64,000 nucleotides of DNA from Escherichia coli (GTDB lineage Bacteria; Pseudomonadota; Gammaproteobacteria; Enterobacterales; Enterobacteriaceae): the NCBI RefSeq assembly GCF_044647545.1, contig NZ_CP172818.1. The stretch is one strand, 5' to 3'. The translations under genes were made by a program, and so were the position numbers. The stretch's first letter is position 1; the number at the start of each line of letters is the position of its first letter. Of this stretch, positions 7,904 to 63,776 are shown piece by piece. The notes under the pieces are model-generated. The model saw only the letters and a program-made list of their open reading frames with translations, did no database searches and was not told the DNA's origin.

Positions 7904-10087
7904 ATGGCGCGTTCCAAAACTGCTCAGCCAAAACACTCACTGCGTAAAATCGCAGTTGTAGTAGCCACAGCGGTTAGCGGCATGTCTGTTTATGCACAGG
8001 CAGCGGTTGAACCGAAAGAAGACACTATCACCGTTACCGCTGCACCTGCGCCGCAAGAAAGCGCATGGGGGCCAGCTGCAACTATTGCGGCGAAGCACTC
8101 TGCTACTGCGACTAAAACGGATACACCAATTGAAAAAACGCCGCAGTCTATTTCGGTTGTGACAAATGAAGAGATGCAGATGCATCAATTTCAGTCTGTA
8201 AAAGAAGCATTAGGTTATACACCTGGCGTTACAGTTAGCAGTCGTGGTGCTTCTAATACATATGATTTTGTTATCATTCGTGGTTTCTCATCTGTTGGCC
8301 TGAATCAAAATAACTACCTTGATGGACTAAAACTTCAGGGCAACTTTTATAACGATGCTGTGATTGATCCTTACATGCTCGAGAGGGTTGAACTGATGCG
8401 TGGGCCGACGTCTGTTCTCTATGGAAAAAGTAATCCTGGTGGGATTATTTCTATGGTGAGTAAGCGCCCGACCACTGACCCCCTGAAAGAAATTCAGTTT
8501 AAAATGGGGACGGATAATCTGTTTCAGACCGGATTCGATTTCAGTGATGCGCTGGATGATAACGGTGAGTTCTCCTACCGTTTGACTGGCCTCGCTCGCT
8601 CAACAAACGAACAGCAGAAAAACTCTGAATCTCAGCGTTATACCATTGCTCCATCATTCTCATGGCGGCCGGACGACAAAACCAATTTAACTTTCCTGTC
8701 CTATTTCCAGAATGAACCAGAAACGGGTTATTACGGTTGGTTGCCGAAAGAGGGGACCGTTGAGCCATTGCCTAATGGTAAGCGTCTACCGACTGACTTC
8801 AATGAAGGTGCGTCGAATAATACATACTCCCGTAACCAGAAAATGGTGGGATATAGTTTTGAACATGGTTTTAATGACACCTTCACCGTGCGTCAGAATC
8901 TGCGTTTCAGTGAAATGAAAACCTCACAGAAAAGTGTTTATGGCCACAGGGATTGCCAGCGATGGTCATACCCTAAACCGCGGGACAGTGGTGGATAATG
9001 AGCGTCTACAAAACTTTAGCGTTGATACCCAACTTGAAAGTAAGTTTGCTACAGGTGACGTCGGGCATACTTTGCTGACAGGGGTAGACTTCATGCGTAT
9101 GCGCAATGATATCAATGCCAGCTTTGGATCTGCACCATCCATCGATCTTTATAACAAATACCATCCTGAATACTTTGCATTTGGTAGCGCAGAGCCATAC
9201 CAGATGAATGAAAGCAAACAAACAGGTATTTATGTTCAGGATCAGGCGGAATGGAATAAATGGGTATTCACTCTGGGGGGGCGCTACGATTGGTCTAAGC
9301 AAGCGACCAAAAACTCTTATACGCCGACTGAAGGTTATATTGAGCGCAATGATCATCAGTTCACCTGGCGCGGTGGTGTAAATTACTTATTCGATAATGG
9401 TATTTCACCTTACTTTAGCTATAGCCAGTCCTTTGAACCGAGTGCTTTCGATCTGGGAACAAGCAACCCGCGCGTTTCCTATAAGCCATCGAAAGGTGAA
9501 CAGTATGAAGCTGGCGTAAAATATGTTCCGAATGATATGCCGGTCGTTGTTACGGGCGCAGTCTATCAATTGACGAAAACAAATAACCTGACAGCAGACC
9601 CAACAAACCCCATTAGCGAAGTCCCGCAGGTGAGATTCGCGCTCGTGGTGTGGAACTTGAAGCAAAAGCGGCGTTAAATGCCAATATTAACTTGACGGCT
9701 TCTTATACCTACACCGATGCGGAATACACCAAAGACACCAATCTCAAAGGTAAAACTCCAGAACAAGTACCGAAGCATATGGCATCTCTCTGGGGGGATT
9801 ATACCTTCAATGAAGGGCCGTTTTCTGGTTTAACATTGGGAACAGGTGGTCGTTTTATTGGTTCCAGCTATGGTGATCCGGCGAACACTTTTAAAGTGGG
9901 TAGCGCAGCTGTAATGGATGCTGTTGTAAAATATGATCTGGCACGCTTTGGTATGGCGGGATCCAGCCTTGCTGTGAACGTCAACAATTTGCTCGATCGT
10001 GAGTATGTTGCCAGTTGCTTCCAGACCTATGGCTGCTTCTGGGGCGCAGAACGTCAGGTCGTTGCAACCGCAACCTTCCGTTTCTAA
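7904..10087 (+). pseudogene. fhuA: ferrichrome outer-membrane transporter FhuA (TonB-dependent receptor), reading frame interrupted by two frameshifts
   Basis: Three consecutive ORFs (7904..8998, 8934..9677, 9650..10087) each translate to FhuA-like sequence; ORF1 and ORF3 share a frame, ORF2 is +1; junctions at ~8945-8957 and ~9629-9630. Confidence 0.85.
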
Positions 10088-10137: not shown

Positions 10138-10935
10138 ATGCAGGAATACACGAATCATTCCGATACCACTTTTGCACTGCGTAATATCTCCTTTCGTGTG
10201 CCCGGGCGCACGCTTTTGCATCCGCTGTCGTTAACCTTTCCTGCCGGGAAAGTGACCGGTCTGATTGGTCACAACGGTTCTGGTAAATCCACTCTGCTCA
10301 AAATGCTTGGCCGTCATCAGCCGCCGTCGGAAGGGGAGATTCTTCTTGATGCCCAGCCGCTGGAAAGCTGGAGTAGCAAAGCGTTTGCCCGCAAAGTGGC
10401 TTATTTGCCGCAGCAGCTTCCTCCGGCAGAAGGGATGACGGTGCGTGAACTGGTGGCGATTGGTCGTTACCCGTGGCATGGCGCACTAGGGCGCTTTGGT
10501 GCGGCAGATCGCGAAAAGGTCGAGGAAGCTATCTCGCTGGTTGGCTTAAAACCGCTGGCGCATCGGCTGGTCGATAGTCTCTCTGGCGGCGAACGTCAGC
10601 GGGCGTGGATCGCCATGCTGGTGGCGCAGGATAGCCGTTGTCTGTTGCTCGACGAACCGACCTCGGCGCTGGATATCGCCCACCAGGTTGATGTGCTGGC
10701 GCTGGTGCATCGTTTAAGTCAGGAGCGTGGCCTGACGGTCATTGCCGTGCTGCACGATATCAATATGGCTGCGCGTTACTGTGATTATCTGGTCGCCCTG
10801 CGCGGCGGTGAAATGATTGCTCAGGGAACGCCTGCGGAAATTATGCGCGGCGAAACCCTCGAAATGATTTATGGCATCCCGATGGGTATTTTGCCGCATC
10901 CGGCGGGTGCTGCACCTGTGAGTTTTGTTTATTGA
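10138..10935 (+). CDS. fhuC: ferric hydroxamate ABC transporter ATP-binding protein (265 aa)
   Basis: MQEYTNHSDTTFALRNISFRVPGRTLL; Walker A GHNGSGKST, ABC signature LSGGERQR, Walker B LLLDEPTSALD. Confidence 0.95.
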   Translation: MQEYTNHSDTTFALRNISFRVPGRTLLHPLSLTFPAGKVTGLIGHNGSGKSTLLKMLGRHQPPSEGEILLDAQPLESWSSKAFARKVAYLPQQLPPAEGMTVRELVAIGRYPWHGALGRFGAADREKVEEAISLVGLKPLAHRLVDSLSGGERQRAWIAMLVAQDSRCLLLDEPTSALDIAHQVDVLALVHRLSQERGLTVIAVLHDINMAARYCDYLVALRGGEMIAQGTPAEIMRGETLEMIYGIPMGILPHPAGAAPVSFVY

Positions 10936-11825
10936 TGAGCGGCTTACCTCTTATTTCGCGCCGTCGACTGTTAACGGCGATGGCGCTTTCTCCGTTGTTA
11001 TGGCAGATGAATACCGCCCACGCGGCGGCTATTGATCCCAATCGTATTGTGGCGCTGGAGTGGTTGCCGGTGGAATTACTGCTGGCGCTCGGCATCGTGC
11101 CTTACGGCGTGGCGGATACCATCAACTATCGCCTGTGGGTCAGCGAACCGCCATTGCCGGACTCAGTGATTGACGTTGGTTTGCGTACAGAACCTAACCT
11201 TGAACTGCTGACCGAAATGAAACCATCGTTTATGGTCTGGTCGGCAGGATATGGCCCTTCACCAGAAATGCTGGCACGTATTGCGCCGGGTCGCGGATTT
11301 AACTTCAGTGACGGCAAACAGCCGCTGGCGATGGCGCGTAAATCACTGACGGAAATGGCAGATTTACTTAACCTGCAAAGCGCAGCAGAAACGCATTTAG
11401 CGCACTATGAAGACTTTATCCGCAGCATGAAACCCCGCTTTGTGAAGCGTGGTGCACGCCCGTTATTGCTGACGACACTTATCGATCCGCGCCATATGTT
11501 GGTCTTCGGTCCAAACAGCCTGTTCCAGGAAATTCTTGATGAGTACGGCATCCCAAATGCCTGGCAAGGGGAAACCAACTTTTGGGGCAGTACCGCCGTC
11601 AGTATCGATCGTCTGGCAGCGTATAAAGACGTTGATGTGCTCTGTTTTGATCACGACAACAGCAAAGACATGGATGCGCTAATGGCAACCCCGCTGTGGC
11701 AGGCCATGCCGTTTGTCCGCGCCGGACGCTTTCAGCGCGTTCCGGCGGTCTGGTTCTATGGTGCGACGCTTTCTGCAATGCACTTTGTGCGTATTCTGGA
11801 TAACGCCATCGGAGGTAAAGCGTGA
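10935..11825 (+). CDS. fhuD: ferric hydroxamate periplasmic binding protein (296 aa)
   Basis: MSGLPLISRRRLLTAMALSPLLWQMNTAHAAAIDPNRIVALEW...; ATGA overlap with fhuC stop. Confidence 0.93.
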   Translation: MSGLPLISRRRLLTAMALSPLLWQMNTAHAAAIDPNRIVALEWLPVELLLALGIVPYGVADTINYRLWVSEPPLPDSVIDVGLRTEPNLELLTEMKPSFMVWSAGYGPSPEMLARIAPGRGFNFSDGKQPLAMARKSLTEMADLLNLQSAAETHLAHYEDFIRSMKPRFVKRGARPLLLTTLIDPRHMLVFGPNSLFQEILDEYGIPNAWQGETNFWGSTAVSIDRLAAYKDVDVLCFDHDNSKDMDALMATPLWQAMPFVRAGRFQRVPAVWFYGATLSAMHFVRILDNAIGGKA

Positions 11826-13804
11826 GTAAACGAATTGCGCTTTTTCCGGTGTTATTGCTGGTGCTGCTGGTGGTTGCTGCTGCGGCGTTGACCTGGATGA
11901 ACTTCTCGCAGGCGCTGCCGCGCAGCCAGTGGGCGCAGGCCGCCTGGTCGCCGGATATTGACGTCATCGAGCAGATGATTTTTCACTACAGCTTGTTGCC
12001 GCGTCTGGCGATTTCGCTGCTGGTGGGCGCGGGCCTGGGGATGGTGGGCGTGCTGTTTCAGCAAGTGCTGCGTAACCCGCTGGCGGAACCGACGACGTTG
12101 GGTGTTGCAACAGGCGCGCAACTGGGGATTACCGTCACCACGCTCTGGGCGATCCCAGGTGCTATGGCGAGCCAGTTTGCTGCGCTGGCAGGGGCTTGTG
12201 TTGTTGGCTTAATCGTCTTTGGCGTCGCGTGGGGGAAACGGCTTTCGCCGGTAACGCTGATCCTCGCGGGGCTGGTAGTGAGCCTTTATTGCGGCGCAAT
12301 CAATCAGTTACTGGTTATCTTCCATCATGACCAACTGCAAAGCATGTTCCTGTGGAGCACCGGAACGCTGACGCAAACCGACTGGGGCGGCGTTGAGCGT
12401 TTATGGCCGCAGCTGCTGGGCGGCGTGATGCTGACGTTATTGCTACTTCGCCCGTTAACCCTGATGGGGCTTGATGATGGCGTGGCGCGCAATCTCGGGC
12501 TGGCCTTGTCGCTCGCGCGTCTGGCGGCGTTGTCGCTGGCGATTGTCATCAGTGCGCTGCTGGTGAACGCGGTGGGGATTATCGGCTTTATCGGGTTGTT
12601 CGCGCCGCTGCTGGCAAAAATGCTGGGGGCGCGGCGTCTGCTGCCACGGTTAATGCTGGCGTCGCTGATTGGTGCGTTAATTCTGTGGCTTTCTGATCAA
12701 ATCATCCTCTGGCTGACTCGCGTGTGGATGGAAGTTTCCACCGGTTCGGTCACTGCGTTGATCGGTGCGCCGCTGTTACTGTGGTTGCTGCCGCGTTTAC
12801 GCAGCATTAGCGCGCCGGATATGAAGGTGAACGATCGTGTCGCGACTGAACGCCAACACGTGCTGGCGTTTGCCCTCGCGGGCGGCGTGCTGCTGTTGAT
12901 GGCTGTGGTGGTGGCGCTGTCGTTTGGTCGTGATGCGCACGGCTGGACGTGGGCGAGCGGGGCGTTGCTCGAGGATTTGATGCCCTGGCGCTGGCCGCGA
13001 ATTATGGCGGCGCTGTTTGCTGGCGTCATGCTGGCGGTGGCGGGCTGTATTATTCAGCGGCTGACCGGAAACCCGATGGCAAGCCCGGAAGTGCTGGGGA
13101 TTAGCTCCGGCGCGGCGTTTGGCGTGGTGTTAATGCTGTTTCTGGTGCCGGGTAATGCCTTTGGCTGGCTGTTACCCGCAGGCAGTCTCGGGGCGGCGGT
13201 GACGCTGTTGATCATTATGATCGCCGCCGGACGCGGTGGATTTTCCCCACACCGCATGTTACTGGCGGGGATGGCGTTAAGTACCGCGTTCACGATGCTT
13301 TTGATGATGTTGCAGGCAAGTGGTGACCCGCGAATGGCGCAAGTTCTGACCTGGATTTCCGGTTCGACCTACAACGCGACCGAGGCGCAGGTCTGGCGCA
13401 CGGGAATTGTGATGGTAATTTTGCTGGCGATTACCCCGCTGTGCCGCCGCTGGCTGACCATTTTACCGCTGGGCGGTGATACCGCACGAGCCGTGGGGAT
13501 GGCGCTGACGCCGACGCGAATTGCGCTGCTGCTGTTAGCGGCTTGCCTGACAGCGACTGCGACAATGACCATTGGACCGTTGAGTTTTGTTGGTTTAATG
13601 GCACCGCATATTGCGCGGATGATGGGCTTTCGACGGACGATGCCGCATATTATGATTTCGGCGCTGGTGGGTGGTTTACTGCTGGTGTTCGCTGACTGGT
13701 GTGGGCGGATGGTGCTGTTTCCATTCCAGATCCCAGCGGGGCTGCTGTCGACCTTTATCGGCGCGCCGTATTTTATCTATTTGTTGAGAAAGCAGAGCCG
13801 TTAA
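11822..13804 (+). CDS. fhuB: ferric hydroxamate ABC transporter permease (660 aa, duplicated permease domains)
   Basis: 660-aa hydrophobic ORF, 4-bp overlap with fhuD. Confidence 0.93.
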   Translation: MSKRIALFPVLLLVLLVVAAAALTWMNFSQALPRSQWAQAAWSPDIDVIEQMIFHYSLLPRLAISLLVGAGLGMVGVLFQQVLRNPLAEPTTLGVATGAQLGITVTTLWAIPGAMASQFAALAGACVVGLIVFGVAWGKRLSPVTLILAGLVVSLYCGAINQLLVIFHHDQLQSMFLWSTGTLTQTDWGGVERLWPQLLGGVMLTLLLLRPLTLMGLDDGVARNLGLALSLARLAALSLAIVISALLVNAVGIIGFIGLFAPLLAKMLGARRLLPRLMLASLIGALILWLSDQIILWLTRVWMEVSTGSVTALIGAPLLLWLLPRLRSISAPDMKVNDRVATERQHVLAFALAGGVLLLMAVVVALSFGRDAHGWTWASGALLEDLMPWRWPRIMAALFAGVMLAVAGCIIQRLTGNPMASPEVLGISSGAAFGVVLMLFLVPGNAFGWLLPAGSLGAAVTLLIIMIAAGRGGFSPHRMLLAGMALSTAFTMLLMMLQASGDPRMAQVLTWISGSTYNATEAQVWRTGIVMVILLAITPLCRRWLTILPLGGDTARAVGMALTPTRIALLLLAACLTATATMTIGPLSFVGLMAPHIARMMGFRRTMPHIMISALVGGLLLVFADWCGRMVLFPFQIPAGLLSTFIGAPYFIYLLRKQSR

Positions 13805-63645: not shown

Positions 63646-63776
63646 TTTATCAGACAATCTGTGTGGGCACTCGAAGATACGGATTCTTAACGTCGCAAGA
63701 CGAAAAATGAATACCAAGTCTCAAGAGTGAACACGTAATTCATTACGAAGTTTAATTCTTTGAGCATCAAACTTTT

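Follow-up and report, generated by a model that had tools for sequence, protein, structure and literature searches.

Six clustered indels interrupt the ferrichrome receptor gene fhuA in an Escherichia coli chromosomal segment and are probably a consensus artifact

We analyzed a 64-kb stretch of DNA (hereafter the window), which covers the E. coli chromosome from gluQRS to rrnH and in which fhuA occupies positions 7904-10087 on the + strand, between mrcB and fhuCDB. The genomic context is that of a FhuA gene, with mrcB upstream, fhuCDB downstream, and flanks identical to those of annotated genomes. According to the list of open reading frames, fhuA coding runs in frame A to approximately position 8944, in frame A+1 to approximately position 9626, and then in frame A again, which gives the following features.

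7904..8998 (+ strand): fhuA piece 1, frame A, 364 aa in the ORF list, with the signal peptide, plug, and first barrel strands.
8946..9628 (+ strand): central fhuA segment, frame A+1, with barrel loops L4 to L8 as placed by protein alignment.
9629..10087 (+ strand): fhuA piece 3, frame A, from GEIRARG... through the native C terminus ...ATATFRF and the stop codon.
10138..13804, end approximate (+ strand): fhuC, fhuD, and fhuB, intact, with zero differences from genomes that carry an intact fhuA.

An initial annotation, made from the sequence without database searches, had described FhuA-like sequence in three successive frames, and this is confirmed by the ORF list together with matches to the NCBIfam profile NF007465 (“ferrichrome porin FhuA”). 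Piece 1 is 100% identical to the intact allele through position 8943 and matches profile positions 1-352 with 707 bits; the central segment, carried by an ORF of 247 aa in frame A+1 (8934..9677), matches positions 348-573 with 356 bits; and piece 3, represented by an ORF of 145 aa in frame A (9650..10087), matches positions 582-726 with 292 bits. The curated equivalog cutoff for NF007465 is 803 bits, with the full profile matched by one polypeptide. None of the three fhuA pieces gives a full-profile match above this cutoff; the intact relative WP_022645191.1 scores 1405.6 bits over profile positions 1-726. The earlier statement that the gene as written cannot make FhuA therefore stands, because all three pieces fall below 803 bits and the frame-A product ends early. 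That product consists of 347 native codons followed by 17 out-of-frame codons and a TAA stop at 8996-8998 (364 residues in total), and the N-terminal fragment of ~348 residues proposed previously was thus nearly right. Judged by descent and synteny, the locus is fhuA, and, as written, it would encode no FhuA protein.

To define the lesions, the window was compared base by base with the intact 729-aa fhuA allele (WP_022645191.1) of the nearest ST648-type E. coli genomes, which include FDAARGOS_497, IMT16316, MS6198, and ECONIH1 and in which fhuA is intact at 729 codons. The comparison revealed six indel events within 682 nt, namely four single-base frameshifting indels (+1, +1, -1, -1) and two in-frame events. 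Outside the lesions, the fhuA sequence (~2.2 kb) is 100% identical to the intact allele, and we detected no isolated substitution across the 2.2-kb gene.

8944..8945 (+ strand): lesion 1, extra C in CC, GGCCACAGG in the window and GGCACAGG in the intact allele.
9309..9310 (+ strand): lesion 2, in-frame 9-nt deletion of CTGTTCGTG in the loop L6 region.
9456..9461 (+ strand): lesion 3, complex change from CTGTGGAGC to CTGGGAACAAGC (TGG to GGAACA), net +3 and in frame, in loop L7.
9608..9611 (+ strand): lesion 4, extra C, giving a C-run of 4 as against 3 in the intact allele, at the start of loop L8.
9618..9619 (+ strand): lesion 5, missing C (GCGCAAG to GCGAAG), seen in the base-by-base comparison.
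9625..9627 (+ strand): lesion 6, missing G at 9626, CCCGGCAGG to CCCGCAGG (CCCG^GCAGG).

In this segment the intact allele reads GGCACAGG, ...ACCACTGTTCGTGAAAAC..., ...CTGTGGAGC..., and ...CCCATTAGCGCAAGTCCCGGCAGG.... Lesion 1 shifts the FhuA coding frame from A to A+1, with the frame-A stop located 50 nt past this first junction, and lesion 6 brings the coding frame back to A. The initial annotation had attributed the broken frame to a single compensating +1/-1 pair, which has to be replaced by six events, four more lying between the two junctions. The extra base that it assigned to positions 8945-8957 is real and sits at the edge of that range, in the CC at 8944-8945; the G that it reported missing is indeed missing, but at 9626, 3-4 nt 5' of the claimed 9629/9630. 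Further, it had regarded the promoter, fhuCDB, and the rest of the ORF as intact: the fhuA flanks, promoter region, and fhuCDB are identical to those of genomes with an intact fhuA, but the rest of the ORF harbors the four additional events.

At the protein level, alignments place the fhuA lesions at the L4 border, in the L6 region, in L7, and in L8. Lesion 1 lies at the border of strand beta7 and L4, 3-4 codons before the start of the loop L4 deletion, which begins at K-12 C318 (primers in the supplement of PMC10373560); Phe-557 (F557) belongs to FhuA loop L8 (PMC10373560). Lesion 2 converts QATTVRENS to QATKNS, lesion 3 converts DLWSNP to DLGTSNP, and lesion 5, which offsets lesion 4 after 7 nt, leaves PISE in place of PLAQ (NPLAQVP to NPISEVP). 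When the outer two shifts are undone on paper, the protein still carries QATKNS, DLGTSNP, and NPISEVP. The residues replaced by the in-frame changes (ATTVR, DLWS, and NPLxQVPAGE) are conserved in homologues across genera, with the ATTVR motif kept in Cronobacter- and Mixta-type homologues and DLWS kept in distant homologues. The altered forms ATKNSY, DLGTSNP, and NPISEVP occurred in 0 of 120 homologues, a non-exhaustive set made up only of fragments shorter than 470 aa. Natural loop variants were rejected on the basis of this count and of the conservation of the replaced residues, as the loss of residues conserved across genera is unlike such variants.

The window's underlying fhuA allele comes from a minority family, with 562 carriers among 5,426 complete E. 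coli genomes. Relative to K-12, the allele is identical over its first ~180 nt and only 60-80% identical thereafter (window positions 8040-10050), and its central region shares ~66% identity with the K-12-type allele, which the remaining ~4,860 genomes carry. Length differences between fhuA allele families fall in surface loops L4-L7. Divergent mosaic fhuA clusters, E1-E4, have been described in E. coli (bioRxiv 10.1101/320069), and this allele family plainly exemplifies that mosaicism. The window resembles these families in that its underlying allele belongs to one of them, but its lesions are not family differences, and no family member has them: length states in the central fhuA segment are the same in all 562 members, which rules out a within-family allele difference, and the lesions were found in 0 of the 562 complete genomes with this allele. 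Copying of the lesions from a K-12-type allele was also considered and rejected: the apparent match in L6 and L7 length arises only in a three-way protein alignment, the pairwise alignment of the K-12 and intact alleles puts the gaps elsewhere, and the window DNA has no K-12-like bases at these sites.

Searches beyond the complete genomes gave the same picture. The lesion 1 pattern was absent from species-representative genomes and the junction of the 9-nt deletion from the metagenome contigs searched; a degenerate pattern admitting both L8 forms matched two metagenome contigs, both of which have the intact allele; and a protein look-up found no exact matches to the 364-aa and 247-aa ORF products. 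Lesions common to relatives or to independent samples, as would mark a pseudogene, were thus seen in 0 of 562 genomes and 0 of 2 metagenome contigs. We note that the same fhuA allele family is present in GCA_053309315.1 (JBRYHP010000116.1), in which fhuA-fhuCDB is divided into many short ORFs, loop L7 reads DCGATRR, and the assembly appears to be uniformly error-ridden. An E. coli fragment with a scrambled L7 (P0032), which comes from a uniformly error-ridden assembly, was set aside as unrelated to the window.

We next consider the background against which the fhuA lesions stand. The whole 64 kb aligns to FDAARGOS_497 in one piece with 3 mismatches and 10 gap openings; two of the three mismatches fall in one complex indel, leaving one isolated SNP in 64 kb, and other ST648-type genomes score identically to FDAARGOS_497 against the window. 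The 7.9 kb upstream of fhuA are 100% identical, and the 24.9 kb downstream 100.0% identical, to many genomes. Outside fhuA, four differences from the ST648-type genomes remain, all of them intergenic: three small indels and one SNP.

24032 (no strand): private extra C in the cdaR-yaeH spacer, located 2 nt beyond the stop codon of yaeH and bordering a stretch for which K-12 has a replacement.
30931..30932 (no strand): private deletion of 5 nt from a small palindrome in the rpsB-tsf spacer, at the site of a 133-nt K-12 element.
32823..32824 (no strand): private loss of GGGG from a hairpin in the pyrH-frr spacer, at the site of a 149-nt K-12 element.
63679 (no strand): SNP, A in the window and G in the reference, between gmhB and rrsH in the rrnH upstream region.

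The three intergenic indels are shared by none of ~5,420 complete E. coli genomes, and the SNP at 63679 is the sole isolated substitution in 64 kb relative to the ST648-type genomes. With respect to K-12, the cdaR-yaeH spacer is a replaced segment, and the 133-nt element in rpsB-tsf and the 149-nt element in pyrH-frr (L010 31606-31740 and 33627-33777) are absent from the window lineage; the three private intergenic indels lie exactly on such junctions. The G-run of the pyrH-frr hairpin (32788-32858) seems to be length-polymorphic in E. coli, given that RM14723, C25, APEC37, and others show a 3-nt rather than a 4-nt gap relative to the window, and the GGGG deletion makes this hairpin slightly stabler (-12.1 versus -11.4 kcal/mol). 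Among close relatives, 2021CK-00607 carries an IS1 inside dgt (L004 12498-14791), and isolate 648 carries an IS621 between fhuB and hemL (L005 6990-7970); the window has neither.

The distribution of these differences is strongly non-random. A cluster of six or more of the ten events within 682 nt of the 64 kb arose in 0 of 200,000 simulation trials, with an analytic bound of ~2e-7 for the six-event cluster, and counting conservatively (4 clusters among 8 events) gave 3e-4. Neutral decay after one knock-out was ruled out by these clustering statistics. Intergenic DNA makes up 7.65% of the window outside fhuA, and the probability that all four differences there would be intergenic is ~3e-5 (4.5e-4 for the three intergenic indels alone). 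The spectrum is equally unusual. Natural divergence would be expected to yield at least as many substitutions as indels, whereas for 10 gap openings the 64 kb shows a single isolated SNP, an indel:SNP ratio of ~10:1 versus FDAARGOS_497. From bacterial mutation spectra, divergence that gave ~10 indels should bring many more substitutions. Differences from clonal relatives that are indel-dominated and private, as found here, are those expected of an artifact.

Further, the lesions coincide with places where E. coli lineages differ in length. Alignment of an intact ST648-type genome with K-12 gives no more than about ten small clusters of indels or breaks over the first 34.9 kb, yet all seven lesion zones lie within 9 nt of an ST648-type/K-12 indel or alignment break. 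Such near-indel positions account for 1.3% of the first 34.9 kb and 14% of fhuA, and the probability of the coincidence is ~7e-14 overall and ~4e-4 within fhuA. Specifically, lesion 1 coincides exactly with the ST648-type/K-12 alignment break that precedes L4, 5 nt separate the 9-nt deletion from a K-12 gap of 16 nt, the L8 lesion trio lies inside a +1/-1 gap pair of the K-12 alignment, and the lesions at 24032, 30931, and 32823 occupy the exact sites of the K-12 replaced segment and of the 133-nt and 149-nt elements. Approximately half of the K-12/ST648 indel sites are free of lesions (L5, 9699-9705, 5054-67, and all those in 34-64 kb). The sites fit a comparative or mixed-template consensus; selection would also favor indel-tolerant sites, and GC content and hairpins explain only part of the pattern. 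Hairpins harbor two of the three intergenic indels (z = -4 for one of them), and the fhuA sites have no significant structure, so that hairpins were rejected as a sole cause. A coverage drop-out in low-GC DNA was likewise set aside: fhuA has 46% GC compared with 52% for the window, but its 5' half is just as AT-rich and the dgt region is lower still in GC, and both are lesion-free.

These observations lead us to suggest that the lesions are probably an artifact of consensus building or polishing and that the organism has an intact 729-codon fhuA of the ST648-type family. This reading is favored because the differences are indels without substitutions, are private, sit on polymorphic junctions, and cost the protein conserved residues; the positions of the frameshifting lesions do not appear to have been set by selection for a working protein. 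The initial annotation had offered recent inactivation by phage or antibiotic selection or, alternatively, two indel errors in the assembly; the evidence favors the error alternative, with six events rather than two, and the sequence does not call for an account by selection. The source would be an indel-prone or alignment-dependent reconstruction of the sequence, for example a long-read consensus polished or corrected against a non-identical E. coli sequence or, alternatively, reads or a sample in which another E. coli lineage was also present. Such a procedure would settle substitutions correctly by majority and would leave length-polymorphic sites with ragged small indels. As the only hypervariable gene of the window, with alleles differing in length at loop segments, fhuA would collect most of the errors, and their accumulation at the loop segments would make it look frameshifted. 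For errors found only at inter-lineage indel sites, a consensus step that was comparative or drew on mixed templates is a likelier origin than simple read noise. Both the technical cause and the choice of technical process are inferred from the sequence alone, which weighs against the artifact reading, as do several other observations. The extra C residues at non-homopolymer sites and the 9-, 5-, and 4-nt deletions fit no single modern platform's typical residual errors, lesions are missing from about half of the window's K-12/ST648 indel sites, and places that are evolutionarily tolerant of indels are also where real new indels would survive.

The main competing explanation, which we consider unlikely, is that fhuA is a genuine pseudogene, a null allele of the tonA type in which none of the six lesions is an error and native FhuA sequence ends after residue 347, the in-frame changes in L6, L7, and L8 being earlier steps of receptor escape and the frameshifts the final knock-out. 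The ORF is indeed broken as written, and the lesions affect or adjoin loops L4, L6, L7, and L8, where phages and colicins make contact (F557 is in L8; PMC10373560), which also counts against an artifact. Three of the events preserve the frame, as serial receptor selection would also predict, and the other private differences all avoid coding DNA, as purifying selection predicts. Moreover, fhuA is dispensable, and a small-indel pseudogene of it is known from S. Typhi (bioRxiv 10.1101/320069). However, one lesion would be enough for resistance, and a single knock-out is insufficient as an explanation because there are six clustered indels with no substitution in fhuA, together with three private intergenic indels in an otherwise clonal 64 kb, and all fall where E. 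coli lineages differ in length. Six indels with no substitution in the gene and only 1 SNP in 64 kb constitute an unnatural spectrum, and neutral decay cannot give 6 events in 682 nt versus 4 in the ~62 kb of flank. In addition, the changes delete residues conserved across genera, the three intergenic indels on the junctions of polymorphic elements need an explanation of their own, and the lesions occur in no other genome or metagenome contig among those searched. A more elaborate version, to which we would give little credence, is a stepwise arms race, in a natural ST648-like strain, in which all six lesions are real: successive small rearrangements of L6, L7, and L8 would have escaped different FhuA-dependent phages or colicins with transport kept, frameshifts at the borders of L4 and L8 would then have abolished the receptor, and an unusual indel-biased mutational process would have scarred the intergenic palindromes.

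It is similarly improbable that one real fhuA lesion, or heterogeneity such as a phage-selected subpopulation, locally degraded the consensus and that the rest are errors. This would account for the confinement of the bad stretch to ~0.7 kb and for its position in a classic target gene of phage selection, but no sequence feature marks any single lesion as real, and the intergenic lesions obey the same positional rule as those of fhuA, which suggests a single common cause. Finally, ribosomes might shift +1 near 8944 and -1 near 9626 to yield full-length FhuA, given that the pieces follow one another colinearly and that the shifts cancel out. Comparison with the intact allele effectively refutes such recoding: all 562 relatives are single-frame at both junctions, with no conserved shift site for ribosomal frameshifting in the homologues, the frame-A stop follows 50 nt after the first junction, and the read-through product would still be without the conserved residues.

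Both main readings, artifact and null allele, have known counterparts. Null alleles of the tonA type have long been in use for T1 resistance. The fhuA gene of S. Typhi has been reported to be broken by indels of 1-2 bp (bioRxiv 10.1101/320069). The window resembles both in that the same gene is affected at the same mrcB-fhuA-fhuCDB locus and in that a protein ending ahead of most of the barrel would no longer act as receptor for T1, T5, phi80, colicin M, and albomycin or transport ferrichrome; it differs in that the known null alleles need one lesion, whereas the window has six clustered indels and no substitutions in an otherwise intact-strain background. Frameshift “pseudogenes” created by assembly errors, of which GCA_053309315.1 is an extreme example with the whole fhu operon in fragments, resemble the window in that its differences are indel-only and private and in that one gene is split into adjacent ORFs amid clonal identity. 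The window differs from them in its low error density (~1 per 6 kb) and non-random sites.

Either outcome would be of an ordinary, already known kind with no bearing on an open question. If the lesions were real, this would be a routine receptor loss of the tonA type, for which the prediction is that ferrichrome is no longer taken up and that the strain resists FhuA-dependent phages (T1, T5, and phi80), colicin M, albomycin, and microcin J25; a polar drop in fhuCDB expression might then affect the uptake of all hydroxamate siderophores. If the lesions are errors, as we think probable, the consequence is one of caution only. The record would then probably have similar small indels at other length-polymorphic sites across the genome, and loss of fhuA should not be assumed for this strain, for example in predictions of its phage host range, its susceptibility to albomycin and colicin M, and its use of siderophores.
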